64,000 nt of DNA. It comes from an uncultured Clostridium sp. Its GTDB lineage: Bacteria; Bacillota; Clostridia; TANB77; CAG-508. The notes beneath the pieces were generated by a model. The model was not told the origin of the DNA. It worked only from the letters and a program-made list of their open reading frames with translations, and did no database searches. Below are positions 3,889-51,259 of this stretch, one piece after another. The DNA lies in assembly GCA_945865665.1 (NCBI GenBank), contig CAMBEE010000005.1, positions 17,186 through 81,185 on the forward strand. The letters run 5' to 3'. Position numbers and translations under genes: made by a program. Position 1 is the first letter of the stretch, and each line of letters opens with the position of its first letter.

Positions 3889-3989
3889 AAATATTATAAT
3901 TTATAATATGAAAAAAGTCAAATTTTTCAATCTCAGAATAGTGTAAAATTGTTTCGGAATATAAAAAAAGAGTATTTTGTATAATACAA

Positions 3990-26282: not shown

Positions 26283-26930
26283 TTATTCTTTTAATAATTT
26301 TTCTATTTCTTCTTTTTTTAGTTGTGTTGCTTCTTCAACTTGTTCACTTGTTAGTCCCATCTTAAATAATTTTTTTGCAATTTCTATGCTTTTTTCTTTA
26401 ATTCCCTCAATTTTACCTTCTATTTTACCTTCTTTTCTTCCCATATCAATATACATCTGATTTTCTCTTCTTATCATATCAACCACTGCTAACACTTCTT
26501 TTCCCCTCCCTTCTTCTATTTTATTTACTAATCTTTCTACTTCATCATCTCCTAGCTTTTCTTTAAATACTATTTTTATATTTTTCTATGTCTTTTATTT
26601 CTATTTTTGCATTTATTGCTTTATTTATTATTAAAACTGCATTTTCTTTTTTATCTAATATTGTTCTAAATATTTTATCATGCTCTTGATTTATTTCTTT
26701 CTCCTGAATATTTGCTTTTGAACTCATTCTTTCATATTTTACTTTTGGTTCTTGTAATTCAGCATAATAATTCTGATTATTATTTTCATCAATTATTTTC
26801 CAAAGTTTTTCGAATATTGTTTTATATTTTATATATTCTTTATATGTAAACTTTTCTATATTAATTTCATCTCCTTCATTATAATATTTGTTTTCATTTT
26901 TGTCAACATTTATTTATAAGTTTATATGTA
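26283..26930 (-). pseudogene. Rpn-family (PD-(D/E)XK, transposase_31-like) recombination-promoting nuclease, degraded remnant
   Basis: C-terminal 70-aa ORF ends GKIEGKIEGIKEKSIEIAKKLFKMGLTSEQVEEATQLKKEEIEKLL, the characteristic Rpn tail. An upstream fragment MSSKANIQEKEINQEHDKIFRTILDKKENAV carries the N-terminal HD..FR motif. The nuclease core is missing, although a TTGACA-17-TATAAT promoter (26878-26906) is still intact. Confidence 0.5.
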
Positions 26931-27101
26931 TTTTTTAATCACCTACTTTCATATTTTTTTAAATTCATTTTGGATTTTTTCTTTGATTTTAAATCTTTGA
27001 ATTAATTGATTTGAATAAAATTAAAGTACATTTATAATACAACAAAATGCTGAACTTTGCAACATTTTTTTATCGCAAAATTCGACATTTTCTGTTTAAT
27101 A

Positions 27102-27393
27102 GTTACAATTCACAGCTTTAAAAATTTTGTGTGCAAGTTGCCGCATTAAGGGTTATATATATTTGATATTGTATCCTGTTCATTACGTTTAAAAAGAAAA
27201 TCTAAAATATCTAACTGAGCCTCTCTCACTTAGGACAGAAATGTATATATGTATTTCTTTTGTGAGCATTCCTCAGTTTTTTATTTAAGATTTTCTATTT
27301 TTCACTTCAATCAAACGAATACAATATCAAATATATATAACCCTTAATGTGACAACTTGCACACAAAAATTTTAAAAAGCTGTGAATCGTAAC
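27102..27393. mobile_element. MITE-like non-autonomous element, copy 1 (292 bp, ~75-bp TIRs, TTTAATA target duplication)
   Basis: Ends GTTACAATTCACAGCTTTAAAAATTTTGTGTGCAAGTTGCC... and its inverted complement; flanks (g)TTTAATA on both sides; no ORF. Confidence 0.75.
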
Positions 27394-27420
27394 ATTTAAT
27401 AATCAAATATAAAACTAATA

Positions 27421-29574
27421 TTATAAAACTAATATCACATTATACACTAAGTTTGTAAGCATACATAAAACAATTCCGCAAATAGTTGGAATTGCAAAAG
27501 AAATTGTAGTCCATTTCCAGCTACCAGTCTCCTTTTTAACAGTAAGCAATGTTGTAGTACAAGGAAAATGTAGAATTATAAAAAGCATAACATTCATAGC
27601 AGTAAGCATGGTCCAGCCATTTTGAATTAAAATCTGTCCAATTTGAATTGTATCCTCTATATTTACCAATGTTCCGCCTTTCAAATAACACATCAAAATT
27701 ATTGGTAATACTATTTCATTTGCTGGAATTCCTAAAATAAATGCAGTTAAAATATATCCATCCAAGCCCATTAATTTTGCAAAAGGATTTAAGAAATTTG
27801 CTATAATTGAAAGCAAACTTTGACCATCAATTCCTATATTTGCCATAAGCCATATCACAAGTCCTGCAGGTGCTGCAACAGATATAGCTCTACTTAAAAC
27901 AAATAGAGTTCTATCAAATATTGAACGAACTAATATTTTTCCGAATTGTGGTTTTCTATATGGTGGCAATTCTAAAACCATTGATGATGGCATTCCTTTT
28001 AATATTGTTTTTGATAATATTTTTGATGTTACGAGTGTTAAAAATATTCCAAATATTATTACAATAATTACTGCAAATGTTGATAATATTGATGCTAGAA
28101 ATCCATTTCCACCTGCAAATGCTCCTGCTATAAATATTGTCGCAATTGTTATCAAAAATGGAAATCTTCCATTACATGGGACAAAGTTATTCGTTAATAT
28201 TGCAATTAGTCTTTCTCTTGGTGAATCTATAATTCTGCATCCTGTTACTCCACACGCATTACACCCAAATCCCATGCACATTGTTATCATTTGTTTTCCA
28301 CTACAACAAGCCTTTTTAAAGAAGCCGTCCATATTAAATGCAATTCGTGGAAGATATCCCAAGTCTTCTAATATTGTGAATAGTGGGAAGAATATAGCCA
28401 TTGGTGGTAACATTACTGCAACTATCCAAGTTAATGTTTTATACACTCCATTTATTAACATATCTGAAAGCCATATTGGGCAATGTATATAATTTGCAAA
28501 ATGTACAAGTCTGTCTTGAAACCAGTTAAAAATACTGAATAGCCACTCTGATGGATAATTTGCTCCTACTATGGTTATCCAAAAAATTAGGCCTAAAAAT
28601 AGTATCATTATTGGAATTCCAAATATTTTTGATGTTAAAATTTTGTCTATTTTTAGGTCTCTTTCTCTATAATTTTTGTTTTCAAATGTACATACTTCTT
28701 TTGATGTTTCTTCTGCTTTTTTCATGATATCTGCAACTATTTTATCCTTAAAATTTTTGGATGTGATTTCTCTTGTTTCTAGATTTTCTTTTGCTTCTAC
28801 TACTGACTGTTGAATTTCTTGTTCTTCTAAGTCTAATTCTAAATTTTCTTGTATTGATTTTAATATTTTTTCTTCTCCATCTATTAGTTTTATCGCTATC
28901 CATCTGCATAATTTTTTTGATATTTTATTTTTCTCAACTCCTATTTCTGTTACTATATTTCTTTTTTCTGAATATTCATTAACTAATAAATCTGTATCAA
29001 GTTTCTCCACTATTTTTTCAAGATTTTCTTCTATTTCTTGTTCATATCTAACTGTTTTGGTATATGGTCTTATTTCACCTTCACATACTTTATATATTGT
29101 ATTTTTTAGATTTTCTAGTGTTTGTTTATTTCTTGCAACAGTTCCTACAACAGGAACTCCTAACAAATCTTCTAATTTTTTTAAATCAATTTTTATTTTT
29201 TTCTTTTTCGCTTCGTCTAACAAATTTACACAAACAATTATGTTATCTGTTATTTCCATAATTTGATATACTAAATTTAAATTTCTTTCTAAACATGTGC
29301 TGTCAACTACAATTACTGTTGCATCTGGGTTTCCAAAGCATATGTAATCTCTTGCAATTTCTTCTTCTTCTGAGTTTGACATTATTGAATATGTACCTGG
29401 AATGTCAACAAATGTGAATTCTTTGTCATTAATTATTGCTTCTCCTGTTGCGTTTGCTACTGTTTTTCCTGTCCAGTTTCCTGTGTGTTGATGCATTCCT
29501 GTTAAACTGTTGAATATGGTTGATTTTCCTACGTTTGGGTTTCCTGCTAATGCTACTATATATGTATTTTTCAC
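27421..29574 (-). CDS. feoB: ferrous iron transporter FeoB
   Basis: N-terminal GTPase (GNPNVGKST), gate motifs, C-terminal polytopic permease; 717 aa. Confidence 0.95.
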   Translation of the reverse strand: MKNTYIVALAGNPNVGKSTIFNSLTGMHQHTGNWTGKTVANATGEAIINDKEFTFVDIPGTYSIMSNSEEEEIARDYICFGNPDATVIVVDSTCLERNLNLVYQIMEITDNIIVCVNLLDEAKKKKIKIDLKKLEDLLGVPVVGTVARNKQTLENLKNTIYKVCEGEIRPYTKTVRYEQEIEENLEKIVEKLDTDLLVNEYSEKRNIVTEIGVEKNKISKKLCRWIAIKLIDGEEKILKSIQENLELDLEEQEIQQSVVEAKENLETREITSKNFKDKIVADIMKKAEETSKEVCTFENKNYRERDLKIDKILTSKIFGIPIMILFLGLIFWITIVGANYPSEWLFSIFNWFQDRLVHFANYIHCPIWLSDMLINGVYKTLTWIVAVMLPPMAIFFPLFTILEDLGYLPRIAFNMDGFFKKACCSGKQMITMCMGFGCNACGVTGCRIIDSPRERLIAILTNNFVPCNGRFPFLITIATIFIAGAFAGGNGFLASILSTFAVIIVIIFGIFLTLVTSKILSKTILKGMPSSMVLELPPYRKPQFGKILVRSIFDRTLFVLSRAISVAAPAGLVIWLMANIGIDGQSLLSIIANFLNPFAKLMGLDGYILTAFILGIPANEIVLPIILMCYLKGGTLVNIEDTIQIGQILIQNGWTMLTAMNVMLFIILHFPCTTTLLTVKKETGSWKWTTISFAIPTICGIVLCMLTNLVYNVILVL

Positions 29575-35908: not shown

Positions 35909-36391
35909 TTAGAAGATATCGCCCATATCGCCCATATAAGCATCCACTCCATTTTCAATAAGAGCCATATTAAGATTCCAGCCATCATCAACAATCTTAT
36001 TGTATCTTGCCAGAATTTCATCAGGACTCATCGTTGTATCTTCTTTGATGGTTGCTTTAGCATATCCTTCAGCTTTTCCGAAAGTAAAGAAACCTCTGAA
36101 CATAGGACTAAATGCAGTCCAACAGCCATCTCTTTCCAAATTCGGAAAGCAATAAAGAAGAGGTGAAAGCTCACGTTCTGTGGACATCTTCAGATATACC
36201 AGGTTATTGTTGGACTCATCATATTTGCCATGAATGTATCTTTCAGAATCATAGCGAGATGAATACTGTTCCTCCATATACCCCTTAATCTGCCCAGACT
36301 CTTCAAGTACAAAGTACCCCTTAAAGTCCGCGGGTAATTCGCTATACCGACCATTTTGCTGGAACTTCCCCTCAATGCTGAATACTTTCAT
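35909..36391 (-). CDS. hypothetical protein (160 aa), horizontally acquired cargo
   Basis: About 40% GC against a ~27% background; own promoter TTGAAA-17-TGgTATGAT and RBS GGAGG; no recognisable motif. Confidence 0.5.
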   Translation of the reverse strand: MKVFSIEGKFQQNGRYSELPADFKGYFVLEESGQIKGYMEEQYSSRYDSERYIHGKYDESNNNLVYLKMSTERELSPLLYCFPNLERDGCWTAFSPMFRGFFTFGKAEGYAKATIKEDTTMSPDEILARYNKIVDDGWNLNMALIENGVDAYMGDMGDIF

Positions 36392-36525
36392 ATTGTTTCC
36401 TCCTTACAATTGTAATATGGGATTTTACAACTTGCTATTTTTGTTTATTTCGCATAGCTACGAATATTTTACTTTAATATCATACCATATTTTACATAAA
36501 ATTTCAACTGAATTTCTCAAATTTA

Positions 36526-36831
36526 TTATGCCTTATAATTTACACTATTAAATAAATACAAAGCAACCTTATTTCTTTCAGTTTCAGTCATTTCCATAAT
36601 CTTAGCCATTGTAGACATTACAAGTTGATATTTTGCAAAATTTATTAAAGTAGTTCTATATTCTTCATCACCTTCTTTTAGCATAGTATCAAATTTCTCA
36701 TACATTTCAGTTTTATTGTATAAAATATTAGCCCAATCGCTTGTAGATAAACATATTCCAAGTATTAATTTATCTTTTATATCCATATCTTTAATTATAT
36801 TTATTACATTTTCAACTTTATTTTCTTCCAT
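36526..36831 (-). CDS. hypothetical protein (101 aa)
   Basis: Open ORF immediately downstream of the relaxase on the same strand. Confidence 0.4.
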   Translation of the reverse strand: MEENKVENVINIIKDMDIKDKLILGICLSTSDWANILYNKTEMYEKFDTMLKEGDEEYRTTLINFAKYQLVMSTMAKIMEMTETERNKVALYLFNSVNYKA

Positions 36832-36844
36832 AAATTTAGCTCCT

Positions 36845-38230
36845 TTACTTTAATTCCATATTATTTTTCTTTTTATTCTTATCAATTATTTCTTCTTTAG
36901 GTTTTACTTTTCTATAAATATTATTTGCAATTTCATTTTCATCATCAGTAAATATACCATTTTTATATAAATCATCACTAACAATTTTATAGTTCTCATT
37001 TTTATCAAAACAAATTCTTTTATGAAAATGTCCCATAATACTATGCCAAAAGTCTTTGAATTTCTGTAATTCTTGTTTTAATTTTTCTTTTTCAGCTTGT
37101 AGTCTATTTACAACCTTGTCTTTAGTTGTTAGTTTGCTTTTCAAGTTATCTATTTCATCTTCTTTTAGCTCTAATTGATATTTAAGTGAATGATTTTCTT
37201 TCGCTATTTTAAAAGAACTATACTCAAAATCTTTAATAGCCATATTTAAGTCATTTACACTTCTAATAGTTTTAGTGGTATCTTTTACATCTTTTGTAAA
37301 ACTTTTGATTTTTTCAATATCTTCGTTTGAAATAACCTTATTATTTTTATTAAATGGGGTAGGTTTTAAATTATCTAATATTGTACTTATATCTTTACTC
37401 GTATTATCAAGTTTTTTAGTTTGGCTATTAGCTTCAGCAAGTTTTTTCTCTTTCTTTTCCAGTTGCTTTTTTATATTTCTATAATTTCCCATATCATTAA
37501 CATTTATGTCTTGATTTCTGCCTTTTTGCTTTTCTTTTAATTTAAATTCTATATCATAGAACTTGTTAAAAGACTTAATACAAGCATTTCTCATTTTATC
37601 TTGAATTGCAGTTAATGACTCTTTTGTAAAAAGTTTTGTTTTACCAACTTGTTTTTTCATGCCTCTAGGAGAGTTCTCTATTATAGGTACTCCAACAATG
37701 TGCATGTGGGGAGAGGTTTCATCAAAATGAATTGTTGCATTTGCTATTTTAAAAGTTGGCACAATTTTAGCTAATTCCTTAACTTGTTCATTATACACAT
37801 CAATCATTTTTATTCTATATTCTTGCTCTTTACCGTTCCAAAAATCCATATCTCCAAGCTCTATTATAATTTCACAGGCTATATCATTTTGTGAGTCACA
37901 CACTTTTTCAAAATAGTTGTCTATTTTTCTATCATCTCTAGTCTGTTTATTATTATATTCAATACGAGCTTCTTCAAATTCTTGTAAATATAAATCTTGC
38001 ACATCATTTACAATATTATCTGTACCATAAATAACTCTAATCAAATCTCTTTGATTATCATAATCTCTTAAGTTGTGTTTATTAACTCTTGATAAATCAT
38101 TTGCATTTTGAATTGCATTATTTGATAGAGAAGTAGTACCAGATACATTTTCTTTAGAAACTTTCTTTGCTAATTTACTTTTATTCTTATCACTACCTAA
38201 ATGAAAAGAATATGCTAATTCTTGCTCCAA
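36845..38230 (-). CDS. plasmid recombination/mobilization relaxase, MobV (Mob_Pre) family
   Basis: N-terminal LAYSFHLG (catalytic Tyr), KHNLRD, and the HxDE..PHxH box (IHFDETSPHMHIV); long coiled-coil C-terminus. Likely TTG start after RBS AAGGAGGTG inside the track ORF. Confidence 0.8.
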   Translation of the reverse strand: MEQELAYSFHLGSDKNKSKLAKKVSKENVSGTTSLSNNAIQNANDLSRVNKHNLRDYDNQRDLIRVIYGTDNIVNDVQDLYLQEFEEARIEYNNKQTRDDRKIDNYFEKVCDSQNDIACEIIIELGDMDFWNGKEQEYRIKMIDVYNEQVKELAKIVPTFKIANATIHFDETSPHMHIVGVPIIENSPRGMKKQVGKTKLFTKESLTAIQDKMRNACIKSFNKFYDIEFKLKEKQKGRNQDINVNDMGNYRNIKKQLEKKEKKLAEANSQTKKLDNTSKDISTILDNLKPTPFNKNNKVISNEDIEKIKSFTKDVKDTTKTIRSVNDLNMAIKDFEYSSFKIAKENHSLKYQLELKEDEIDNLKSKLTTKDKVVNRLQAEKEKLKQELQKFKDFWHSIMGHFHKRICFDKNENYKIVSDDLYKNGIFTDDENEIANNIYRKVKPKEEIIDKNKKKNNMELK

Positions 38231-38428
38231 TGAAAACACCTCCTTGAAATTTCTTCGAAGCACAGGACTTTGACCTTGTCATAAGTCCTAACCCCCTATA
38301 TGTTATGACATACTATCATAACATGGGGGCTCTGCGAGGCAATAAAATTTATTTTTTGCAAATAAATTTTATTCAAATTAACTATCGCCACTTTCATTTT
38401 TGTTATCACAAAAACAAAACGTGCCACG

Positions 38429-40352
<1,924 letters not shown>

Positions 40353-40582
40353 TTTCAATTTGCATAACCTCCTAACTTCAAAAAAAGAGACATCAAAGTA
40401 CACACGAGTACTAATGACATCTCTTAAATCCGTTTATCACAAAATAAAATACAATATAATTGTAATATAATATAATTTTTTCAAAGTACTCGTAAATCTA
40501 TATTTGCTATTGCCCAAGAAAATATAGATAATTAATTGCCTATATTATATCACGATTTAAAGAAATGTCAATTTTTTACAAA

Positions 40583-40864
40583 TTATATTTTTTTCAAATA
40601 TTCTTCTAACTCTGATAATTTAATCTTTTTAGTCAAATTTGAAATATACACATCATTTGAATAATTAAAAACTAAAAAAGTAATATTTTTAATAATCACT
40701 CTATGTGGTTCAATGTATGTAAGATTAGTTTTCTCTAATTTTCTAACACTACCATTGATAAAAGTAGGATTAACTTTAGAAAACTCACATATAAATTCAA
40801 GTCGTTGTTTTAGACATTCCTCAAATTCTAATTCTTGCTTAATTATCTTCATTTCAAACACCAT
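40583..40864 (-). CDS. hypothetical protein (93 aa) upstream of the recombinase
   Basis: Open ORF with no recognised motif. Confidence 0.4.
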   Translation of the reverse strand: MVFEMKIIKQELEFEECLKQRLEFICEFSKVNPTFINGSVRKLEKTNLTYIEPHRVIIKNITFLVFNYSNDVYISNLTKKIKLSELEEYLKKI

Positions 40865-40974
40865 CCTTTCATTGTAATTTTAGGATGATTTTTTCGCAAA
40901 AGAAAAAAATCAACCATTTCTGATTGATTTTTGTATCTATCTGTTCTATAAAAAAGTTCGAACAGAAACGTCAT

Positions 40975-41062
40975 TGGTGCAGATGGCCGGAATCGAACCG
41001 GCACGGTTTATTCAACCGCAGGATTTTAAGTCCTGTGCGTCTACCAGTTCCGCCACATCTGC
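40975..41062 (-). tRNA. tRNA-Leu (anticodon UAA)
   Basis: Cloverleaf read by hand: 7-bp acceptor GCAGATG/CATCTGC, anticodon loop CTTAAAA, long variable arm, T-arm GGTTCGATTCC, encoded CCA. Confidence 0.9.
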
Positions 41063-49405: not shown

Positions 49406-49762
49406 TGGTGGAGATGAGGGGAGTCGAACCCCTGTCCATAATACTTTCCAAATAGACCTCTACAAGTTTATTTTATCTTTTATTTTCATCTTTAACTCGC
49501 GGATAAACACGCTAATTAAAAATATAGCTTTATAAAATACCCACTATTTCTAAAGCCAAAATAGCTTTGTTTCCTACTTTAGTTATAACACCCTTACTAA
49601 ATCAGTAGGCTATTTAGTTCAGATGACGTTGCAAACTAGGCAGCGTATGCTAATTCTTCGTTGTTAGCGTTTATTTTTATTTTCTCGTTTTTTAAGTGGC
49701 CAACGAGAATCCACTACTTGCTATCTGTTTTTCTGGTAATATGTCGAAACCTTTACATCCCC
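49406..49762 (-). ncRNA. ssrA: tmRNA (ssrA)
   Basis: 5' end GGGGATGTAAAGGTTTCGAC..., 3' tRNA-like end GGACAGGGGTTCGACTCCCCTCATCTCCACCA. Internal tag frame GCT AAC AAC GAA GAA TTA GCA TAC GCT GCC TAG gives a tag ending LAYAA. Confidence 0.85.
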
Positions 49763-49775
49763 ATATTCCCTTATT

Positions 49776-49804
49776 ATTATACTATATCGAGTTGCATTTC
49801 GCAA
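49776..49804 (-). promoter_or_regulatory. ssrA promoter
   Basis: Minus strand TTGCGA-17-TATAAT, 7 nt before the 5' end. Confidence 0.55.
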
Positions 49805-49842
49805 CATTTTTTTGTAATCTTCATATTATATATAAAATAAAT

Positions 49843-50309
49843 GTTACAATTCACAGCCTTAGAAATCTTTGTGTGTAAGTTGCCACCTTAAGGGTTTTAT
49901 ATTTGATATCATATCTGCTTTATTGAAGTGAAAATTAGAAAATTTTAAATATAAAACTGAGGAATGCTCACGGAAAAAATGTATATATGTATATGATTTG
50001 AAACATTTTCTCGGTTCAATACGCAACATATGAATTTCTAAAATAAATTTATGGCACCCTTTCACTTAGTCCTCGCTTCGCTCGACGTGAACTCTTTCCA
50101 TAAATTTATTTAAGAAATTCTAATATTGCTCCAATCACATTCGAAAAGTTCAAAATCATATACATATATACATTTTTGGCCTGAGTGAGAGCGGCTCAGT
50201 TTTGTATTTTAGATTTTCTTTTTGAACGTAATTAACAGATATGATATCAAATATAAAACACTTAAGGTGGCAACTTACACACAAAAATTCTTTAGCCGTG
50301 AATTGTGAC
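49843..50309. mobile_element. MITE-like element, copy 2 (467 bp, inverted relative to copy 1, 8-bp AAATAAAT target duplication)
   Basis: TIRs GTTACAATTCACAGCCTTAGAAATCTTTGTGTGTAAGTTGCCACCTTAAGGG... and complement. Perfect AAATAAAT direct repeat on both flanks. Interior shares blocks with copy 1 plus a ~150-bp extra GC-richer palindrome. Confidence 0.8.
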
Positions 50310-50339
50310 AAATAAATATATTAAACAGGAGGATTTAAT

Positions 50340-51259
50340 ATGTCAATTGTTCCAACAAATATTAATTATAACTACTCTATATTAAAACAAAATTTAAATA
50401 CTTTAAAATCAACATATTCATTTTTAGATATTACAGTTGTCGGTAAAAGCGTCCTTGGAAAAAATATTTATGTTGTTAGACTTCGGTACTGGCCCAAAAG
50501 AGGTTTTTTATTCTGGTTCAATTCATGCAAATGAGTTTATAACAAGTACTTTACTCATGAAATTTATAGAAGATTATTGTAATGCATATGTTCAAAACGA
50601 AAATCTTTATGGATATTCAATCCATGATTTATTTAGCAATGTCTCTATTTATATAATGCCTATGGTAAATCCTGACGGGGTTGATTTAGTAGCAGGAAAT
50701 ATCTCAAAAAATTCATATGCTTTTATTAATGCTAAAAAAATATCTGAAAATTTTAATGATATTCCTTTCCCTCTCGGCTGGAAAGCTAATATCATTCGGT
50801 ACTGATTTAAATTTACAATTTCCTGCTGAATGGAATAAAGCTAAAGAAATCAAATATTCTCAAGGATTTAATAAACCTGCTCCCAGAGATTTTGTAGGAT
50901 TTGGTCCTTTGACTGAACCTGAAGCATTGTGCATTTATGATTTCACTCTTATGCATAATTTTAGACTTATAATTGCTTTTCATACTCAAGGGCAAGAAAT
51001 CTATTGGAATTTTCAAAATATTAATCCACCATCTGGCTATACTATTGCAAATAAGTTTGCAGAAGTAAGTGGTTATGCTGTAGCCGAAGTCCCTTATAAT
51101 TCAAGTTTTGCTGGTTTTAAAGACTGGTTTATACAAGACTATAATAGACCAGGTTTCACTATTGAAGCTGGTCTTGGAGAAAATCCTTTGCCTCTTGAAC
51201 AATTTGATCAAATCTATATTGGTAATTTAGGTATTTTAATTTTAGGTGCTATTTTATAA
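50340..51259 (+). pseudogene. M14-family metallopeptidase (gamma-D-glutamyl-diamino-acid endopeptidase-like), two frameshifts
   Basis: RBS AGGAGG; frames 50340-50534, 50437-50805 and 50717-51259 join into one M14 protein (SIHANEF zinc site, FHTQGQEIYW, GFTIEAG). One-nucleotide indels near 50495 and 50790. Confidence 0.7.

Follow-up and report, generated by a model that had tools for sequence, protein, structure and literature searches.

Background

The yeast element Ty3 inserts at Pol III starts and TRE5-A of Dictyostelium about 48 bp upstream of tRNA genes; in bacteria, safe-haven targeting is exemplified by Tn7 at attTn7 and by IS1397 in REP sequences. REP targeting in bacteria is treated in one report (PMC1525189). 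Whole-length palindromic bacterial MITEs are also known, and the sections of a 2024 review of prokaryotic MITEs that treat them name Correia/NEMIS of Neisseria, enterobacterial ERIC/IRU, pneumococcal RUP and SPRITE (PMC10969869). In its section on insertion-site preference, a general intergenic preference is the only one mentioned, with no fixed distance from promoters (PMC10969869). As for target duplications, those of ISCth4, an IS256-family element of Clostridium thermocellum, are AT-rich and 8 bp long (PMC7780238), and IS66, whose ends read GTAAGCG, makes 8-bp duplications too (PMC11946415).

Here, we analysed two related repeats in the window, i.e. the whole stretch of 64,000 nucleotides under study. 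It has a G+C content of 28.5 %, and its genes are 96-99.7 % identical to human-gut metagenome contigs, including Hadza samples. The two repeats represent a new MITE family, which apparently also follows a new target rule.

Methods

Contigs carrying the copy 2 locus in other strains were fetched through the neighbouring epimerase gene, and those carrying the copy 1 locus through a FeoB homologue. Collections of species-representative genomes and of metagenome contigs were scanned with a motif of the inner repeat. Two further copies (L046 and L047) were retrieved with the translation of a spurious ORF of the element used against a protein collection, i.e. independently of their flanks. For the promoter analysis, flanks were read outward from the element end, and a promoter match was defined, as in the promoter tool, by at least 9 of 12 matching positions and a spacer of 17-18 nt. 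The sample was small, with 19 readable flanks from 12 elements. Regional identities were taken among independent long copies.

Results

Two copies of one palindromic element

The coordinates that a preliminary description had given for the two repeats proved right (Table 1), and both repeats are non-coding copies of one element. As that description held, neither copy encodes a protein, no ORF being conserved between them. The target duplications reported for both copies are also present and measure 8 bp, with seven of eight positions identical in copy 1 and a perfect match in copy 2.

Table 1. Features of the two copies and of their surroundings in the window (strand "." = unstranded)
Feature	Coordinates	Strand	Basis or remark
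MITE copy 1, short form, 292 bp	27102..27393	.	sequence, inverted repeats, DNA fold
Left 8-bp target duplication of copy 1, GTTTAATA	27094..27101	.	sequence
Right 8-bp target duplication of copy 1, ATTTAATA	27394..27401	.	sequence
Promoter-like site TTGCAA-17-TATTAT, reading away from copy 1, -35 at 40 nt	27034..27062	-	promoter scan and own scan
Rpn/YhgA-type (Transposase_31) pseudogene	26286-26727	-	residues 1-53 joined to 216-310; 54-215 missing
MITE copy 2, long form, 467 bp	49843..50309	.	sequence, inverted repeats, DNA fold
Left 8-bp target duplication of copy 2, AAATAAAT	49835..49842	.	sequence
Right 8-bp target duplication of copy 2, AAATAAAT	50310..50317	.	sequence
Central segment of the long form, two arms and a 57-nt loop region	49978..50172	.	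conservation; absent from copy 1
Terminator-like hairpin of module A', CTGAGTGAGAGCGGCTCAG then TTTTGTATTT, outward-facing	50181..50199	+	terminator scan
ssrA promoter TTGCGA-17-TATAAT, reading away from copy 2, -35 at 39 nt	49776..49804	-	promoter scan
tmRNA gene ssrA	49406..49762	-	Rfam RF00023, 178 bits; ARAGORN; 5' end 49762
M14 carboxypeptidase gene, two overlapping frames	50341-51259		split in every strain examined

Copy 1 consists of a terminal repeat, module A, a 22-bp centre, module B' and a terminal repeat, and copy 2 of a terminal repeat, module B, a 195-bp centre, module A' and a terminal repeat, copy 1 being inverted relative to copy 2. The interior modules A and B are related yet distinct, and one of them lies on each side. 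Both copies open with GTTACAATTCACAGC and close with its reverse complement, with 1-2 mismatches (the last letters of copy 1 are GCTGTGAATCGTAAC). Of the conserved 18-mer of the terminal repeat, the window has four occurrences, one in each arm (against 0.26 in shuffled sequence), and BLAST revealed no third copy within the window.

Two measurements changed the first picture of the ends. The terminal repeats had been described as about 95 % identical, but arm-to-arm identity over the outer 75 nt is 90 % in copy 1 and 88 % in copy 2, 96 % being reached only in a 54-nt core of copy 2. They had also been described as 75-bp ends, but complementarity spans each entire copy, which is one long imperfect palindrome and, as single-stranded DNA, folds into a single hairpin (copy 1: -80.5 kcal/mol, z = -18.1; copy 2: -122.9 kcal/mol, z = -19.6). 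The additional segment of copy 2, previously put at about 150 bp, measures about 175 bp.

The terminator-like hairpin of module A' is retained in all copies, and module B carries a weaker one with a T-run on the opposite strand, which faces outward as well. The promoter scan found no promoter with at least 9/12 matches inside the element, and an Rfam scan of the element at permissive E-values returned noise only (best E = 0.037, for a plant microRNA model, far below the gathering score).

Surroundings of the two copies

Copy 1 does adjoin feoB, as had been noted: the stop codon of this gene, which ends at 27421, is 27 nt away. The Rpn-type pseudogene, which it had also been said to abut, lies at a distance of 375 bp. 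Strains L035 and L036 have an intact Rpn-type gene (310 aa), whose family is taken to be multi-copy because short-read contigs of the window species break within this gene, at 26482-26568. The last codons and the stop of feoB are covered by a perfect 14-bp tandem duplication (27408-27435, TATAAAACTAATAT twice), of which related strains have a diverged version.

Next to copy 2, the M14 peptidase gene is frameshifted, as previously observed, but it is split in strains lacking the MITE too, so the frameshift is read as old or programmed and as unrelated to the insertion. On the other side, downstream of ssrA, some strains have a resolvase/recombinase island or unrelated genes in place of dnaE (L026:8686-10390; L033 and L034 beyond ~3000), and the tmRNA 3' end seems to be an integration hotspot in the window species. 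Elsewhere in the window, a small integrated mobilisable element (35909-41062) lies beside tRNA-Leu (40975-41062) and carries a Mob_Pre relaxase (36845-38263) and a large serine recombinase (38429-40066).

A dispersed family with 8-bp target duplications

When more copies were sought, a check put forward in the preliminary description, three GTDB MAGs and also human-gut metagenomes proved to contain them, at unrelated loci. Overall, the family occupies about 14 distinct unrelated loci in at least four related gut genomes (MAGs) or metagenomes, a figure that leaves many copies unsampled, the collection scans having used an inner-repeat motif that misses a second subfamily. With this motif, copies were detected in the three MAGs and in several gut assemblies, the GTDB carriers being uncultured Clostridium sp. 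UMGS1516 and uncultured Clostridia bacterium.

Element lengths range from 287 to 488 bp. The complete long copies L014:486-955 and L011:258-729 are flanked by duplications that match at seven of eight positions (AAAATTGT/AAAATTAT and GCCAAGTT/GACAAGTT, respectively), and a further copy, L047:157-642, by a perfect one (GAATTATC/GAATTATC), so that the 8-bp flanking repeats recur at all three loci, as anticipated. At L046:9745-10231, the flanking octamers (GACATTCC / GATAAGTA) are unmatched. Five of the six complete copies with readable flanks (copies 1 and 2, L014, L011 and L047, not L046) thus show an 8-bp duplication with at most one mismatch; given the base composition, seven or more positions would match by chance with a probability of about 0.0013 per copy.

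L046 and L047 constitute the second subfamily, which has the terminal 15 nt and the interior of the first and a different inner repeat; a six-frame chimeric protein query, directed at spurious ORFs in other frames, found nothing more. The terminal 15 nt conserved across the subfamilies read GTTACAATTCACAG[C/T], the L016 copy begins GTAAC, and the arms within a copy are, across copies, 88-96 % identical over 75 nt. One-armed or truncated copies were found in L013, L012, L010 and L009, and a rearranged one, with an ambiguous duplication, in L017. Many short-read contigs end inside the element, as repeats break short-read assemblies.

Reading the element as a MITE, as first proposed, is supported by the further copies, by the 8-bp duplications and by presence or absence among strains: it is short and non-coding, has terminal inverted repeats and a constant duplication length, and is present at many loci with insertion polymorphism. 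Copy 2 and the consensus terminal repeat gave nothing, or chance-level matches of 20-28 nt, in BLAST searches of plasmids and phages, neither the terminal-repeat motif nor the centre motifs matched any viral contig scanned, and we found no description of this family in the literature on its terminal sequence or on clostridial MITEs. The family is an undescribed small non-coding transposon of low-GC uncultured human-gut Clostridia.

A different palindromic MITE-like element of about 280 bp was noticed at L054:~1795-2075. Its ends begin GGTTATAAGATAAT, it has GTTA(C/T)AA in common with the family studied here as well as a B-like internal module, and its flanks are CACTAGAG/CACTACAA. One of its ends lies 28-29 nt from the -35 of the promoter of a femAB-like gene, which is a single data point. 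This type of element is internally deleted in most strains, the deleted version occupying the same place in L049 (~2055-2130) and L050 (~2035-2110).

Strain alleles and instability of the palindrome

Insertion polymorphism between strains, another check suggested at the outset, was found at both window sites. At the copy 2 site, the element is absent from L033 and L034, where the octamer is present once (a single ATTTATTT), an allele that could be either ancestral or the product of loss. The long form is present in L026 and L027 as in the window. L025 and L031 carry a short-and-flipped form, in which the interior is inverted with respect to the long form and the outermost parts of the repeats keep their chromosomal orientation, and L048 a tip-deleted form, which has partly lost the loop. 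Tip deletions differ between L022 and L048.

At the copy 1 site, the element is absent from ten contigs (L035-L044) and present in L045, the strain type nearest the window. The empty allele (e.g. L035:6165-6190) reads ATATTTG-TAAC-TATTAAAC, i.e. it keeps one copy of the duplication together with GTAAC, the element's own terminus. Because GTAAC is retained and a single deletion between TTG microhomologies can explain the allele, the absence points to a near-precise loss and not to a site that was never occupied. If the empty site were ancestral, one would have to assume a 1-in-1000 coincidence and several further changes.

L046 appears to record another kind of instability. Because its octamers are unmatched and a promoter lies at the canonical distance on both sides (those of pyk and ksgA), it is consistent with a recombinant of two copies, each upstream of its own promoter, and hence with a chromosomal rearrangement.

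A near-invariant centre between drifting repeats

The conservation pattern is the reverse of that usual for MITEs: the centre is near-invariant, and the inner terminal repeats drift yet stay complementary. Central arms are 97-100 % identical within subfamily 1 and 99-100 % between subfamilies. The corresponding values are 86-93 % and 88-98 % for the loop, and 82-89 % and 83-90 % for modules A and B. Terminal repeats reach 77-88 % within subfamily 1 (outer 75 nt, terminal 15 included) and about 50 % between subfamilies (inner positions 16-75), the terminal 15 nt being 80-93 % identical between subfamilies. The conserved centre contains, for instance, TTGAAACATTTTCTCGGTTCAATACGCAAC.

The two arms of each copy match. 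Of the 194 pairs in the consensus fold, 28 have changed on both sides while still paired, among them a single change in L046 that both arms show in mirror image. Since flipping of the interior was observed, the arms evidently recombine, and arm-to-arm gene conversion would explain the pairing with no need for selection for folding. It fails to account for the near-invariant centre.

Copy 2 had been said to hold an extra insert; the extra length is real, but the segment is more likely an ancestral conserved core that the short forms have lost. If it were an insert, the long form would be composite, a younger 175-bp inner element having entered, with a 6-bp ATATAT duplication and on several occasions, the 22-bp palindrome of an older short MITE. 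We grant this a modest chance. A centre that is GC-richer and 97-100 % identical while the outer parts are at 50-88 % would fit a younger element, as would the equal length of the short-form centre in copy 1 and L025 and the difference of exactly 175 bp plus ATATAT between L025 and L027. The composite origin would nevertheless require the same position of entry in both subfamilies, no solo inner element was found (L017:1-108 has the centre together with 14 nt of outer sequence), and the tip is evidently prone to deletion, L022 and L048 having lost different parts of it.

As modules A and B each carry an outward hairpin and T-run, the centre could possibly give rise to a small transcript or serve as a terminator or insulator. 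Taken further, the whole unit would be a host regulatory or structural module (bidirectional terminator, insulator or small-RNA locus) with a functional centre, selected upstream of promoters. The centre is indeed more conserved than the termini, terminator-like hairpins face outward in both modules, and several sites lie between the end of an upstream gene and a downstream promoter. We consider a host module rather improbable all the same, for the duplications and the unrelated loci would still need transposition, frequent loss, truncation and tip deletion among strains speak against an essential role, and the Rfam scan and the search for an internal promoter, as reported above, gave no match.

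Promoters at a fixed distance from the element

In ten of the 19 flanks, a sigma-A-type promoter points outward, its -35 hexamer beginning at a distance of 39-40 nt from the end of the element; all are consensus matches, none of them mapped experimentally apart from the ssrA context. These flanks belong to copy 1, copy 2, L011, L017, L012, L009, L018, L047 and both sides of L046. The -10 hexamers of all ten begin at position 62 or 63. Promoter matches have a background density of 0.003 per position generally, rising to 0.006 where the DNA is most AT-rich; against this background, the excess at offset 39-40 has a binomial P of about 4e-15.

Among the first ten sites, seven had an outward promoter match at 39 or 40 with a 17-nt spacer. 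L046 and L047, fetched after the rule was seen and by the flank-independent route, both fit: the promoter of L047 is TTGTAA-17-TAAAAT at offset 39, and those of L046, one per side, are TTGAAA-18-TATAAT, again at offset 39, and TTGAAT-17-TATAAT, at offset 40. The promoter-like site beside copy 1 is the weakest of the ten (9/12 matches), and its -35 overlaps a terminator-like hairpin. Exceptions are L014, where a sub-threshold TTGTTT-17-GATAAT with a weak -35 lies at offset 41, L013, with a promoter at offset 51, and L010, with one at offset 34. In L013, an 18-nt perfect palindrome, TGTAACAGTACTGTTACA, spans the element end (3915-3935) and moves the promoter from offset 40 to 51; this junction looks like a hairpin-repair scar.

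The genes behind these promoters include ssrA (tmRNA), lepA, a parA-like ATPase gene, pyk (pyruvate kinase) and ksgA, among others, with leaders of about 25-70 nt. Promoter-side flanks are otherwise unrelated, ungapped identity over positions 1-38 being 38 % vs 34 % expected, and the sole other feature that they have in common is an A-tract just upstream of the -35. The possibility that promoter and spacer are part of the element was rejected because the flanks are unrelated and because the ssrA promoter is present in L033 and L034, which lack the element. A 16-mer, TGTCGAATTTTGCGAT, is common to the promoter-side flanks of copy 1 (window 27072-27087) and L011 (228-243), at positions 15-30 from the element end in both, and the 14 nt between it and the element end differ between copy 1 and L011; either a common operator or terminator or paralogy of the two promoters may explain it.

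Given this geometry of the promoter matches, with the -35 at 39-40 nt, transcription starts about 75 bp downstream of the element end, the duplication spanning approximately -75 to -68. The constancy of this position suggests that the element picks its landing site by reading promoters. In the literature searched, we found no bacterial IS or MITE reported at a fixed distance from promoters.

An ordinary MITE inserting at random in AT-rich DNA could also end up near promoters through survivorship in a compact genome, insertions being tolerated only between the end of the upstream gene and the UP-element region of the next promoter. All copies are in fact intergenic, copy 1, L011 and L047 lie in short spacers between a gene 3' end and the next promoter, and the IS256-family element ISCth4 likewise makes AT-rich 8-bp duplications (PMC7780238). 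Survivorship is nonetheless doubtful as an explanation, since it predicts a broad window of tolerated positions, whereas ten flanks were seen at 39-40 with the -10 always at 62-63, and the duplicated octamers show no consensus. Because a tolerated window would not yield one-nucleotide precision, we favour target selection by a promoter-anchored ruler.

The proposed partner transposase

Mobilisation in trans, as first proposed, is a reasonable reading because the element is non-coding and Pfam scans of the window ORFs revealed no DDE transposase. No autonomous element with matching ends was found in the window, the fetched loci, plasmids, phages, viral contigs or the genome and metagenome matches by scans that rested on the inner-repeat motif, which an autonomous element need not share. 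Searching all loci for the terminal 15-mer with at most two mismatches returned known copies only, and an all-against-all comparison of ORFs from the MAG loci revealed no multi-copy gene. The Rpn (Transposase_31) protein was set aside as mobiliser: no element ends surround its gene, which lies 375 bp away, and an Rpn-type nuclease by itself gives no explanation of the 8-bp duplication.

The earlier suggestion of an IS256-, ISL3- or IS6-like mobiliser, made from the duplication length, is a guess. AT-rich 8-bp duplications are common to the element and ISCth4 of the IS256 family, and Mutator-type elements, the eukaryotic relatives of IS256, commonly have long terminal repeats. IS256 ends, however, carry a conserved subterminal TGTAAA, which is inconsistent here, only some copies having TGTAAG at positions 31-36. 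IS66 resembles the family in its 8-bp duplication, and the GTAAC at the start of L016 recalls its GTAA; derivation from IS66 was rejected, as the ends here read GTTACAATTCACAG and not GTAAGCG, leaving the duplication length as the one point of agreement. Derivation from Tn3, suggested by the TTAAG in the terminal repeat, was dropped because the Tn3 family makes 5-bp duplications and the length here is 8. Mobilisation as a folded single strand by an HUH/Y1-type, non-DDE enzyme, as for IS200/IS605-derived palindromes or REPINs, is very improbable despite the whole-element hairpin and the 28 pairs changed on both sides, because those systems make no target duplications, whereas 8-bp duplications flank five of the six complete copies here, and because arm-to-arm gene conversion explains the co-variation, the L046 change being mirrored on both arms.

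Discussion

Taken together, we think it probable that the window contains two copies of a non-autonomous MITE family that is mobilised in trans, chooses its targets by their distance from promoters and forms an unstable palindrome. A transposase encoded elsewhere would recognise the conserved terminal 15 nt, and the ends would be joined to a target cut with an 8-bp stagger, giving rise to the 8-bp duplication. The site would be set by its distance from a sigma-A promoter and not by its own sequence, so that the element inserts with its end 39-40 nt before the -35, at about -75 from the transcription start, with the promoter reading away. The most likely candidates for the ruler are RNA polymerase bound at the promoter and the architecture of phased A-tracts that precedes it. 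More precisely, it could be the sigma-A RNA polymerase itself, its alpha C-terminal domains on upstream A-tracts, or the resulting bend, the enzyme family and the contact with RNA polymerase both being points that we infer. Such behaviour would amount to a "safe haven" strategy, in which genes and promoters are both spared.

After insertion, as the strain alleles show, the whole palindrome evolves in concert, arm to arm, its interior flips through recombination inside the terminal repeats, and microhomology-mediated deletion can remove the tip of the hairpin, an arm or almost the entire element; recombination between copies can rearrange the flanks. The 195-bp centre may serve as a cis-acting site or specify a small transcript whose boundaries are the outward terminator-like hairpins. 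The joint proposition that the transposase or a targeting partner uses the sigma-A polymerase or promoter architecture as its ruler and that the 195-bp centre is functional cargo is more tentative, and we lean somewhat against it as a whole.

For metagenomics, these elements matter as short-read assemblies break at them, immediately upstream of housekeeping genes, and as they bring strain-level variation, i.e. inversion, deletion and inter-copy recombination, next to the promoters of genes such as ssrA, pyk and lepA. If the promoter ruler is true, the system might become a tool for promoter-proximal insertion that does not disrupt genes.

Compared with described MITEs, the family is closest to Correia/NEMIS, ERIC/IRU, RUP and SPRITE, which are likewise small, non-coding and intergenic, with terminal inverted repeats, duplications and long hairpins. 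Some of them, according to the sections of the review that treat them, contain terminator-like sequences as the present family does (PMC10969869). It differs from them in that there is no sequence similarity, the duplication is 8 bp vs TA or 2-3 bp, and the centre is better conserved than the ends.

With regard to targeting, the family resembles Ty3, TRE5-A, Tn7 and IS1397 in its apparent use of a fixed distance or a harmless landmark, independently of the local sequence at the insertion point. A full census that bore out the distance rule would, to our knowledge, make the family the first bacterial transposon with a target set by generic promoters, as opposed to DNA sequence, replication structure or guide RNA. 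The rule raises the question of whether bacterial transposases are able to sense RNA polymerase or the geometry of a promoter. Ty3 and TRE5-A are retrotransposons that act via Pol III factors, and Tn7 and IS1397 read specific DNA, whereas the apparent landmark here is the generic sigma-A promoter; the promoter ruler, if true, would be a bacterial counterpart of the Pol III-directed integration of Ty3 and TRE elements.
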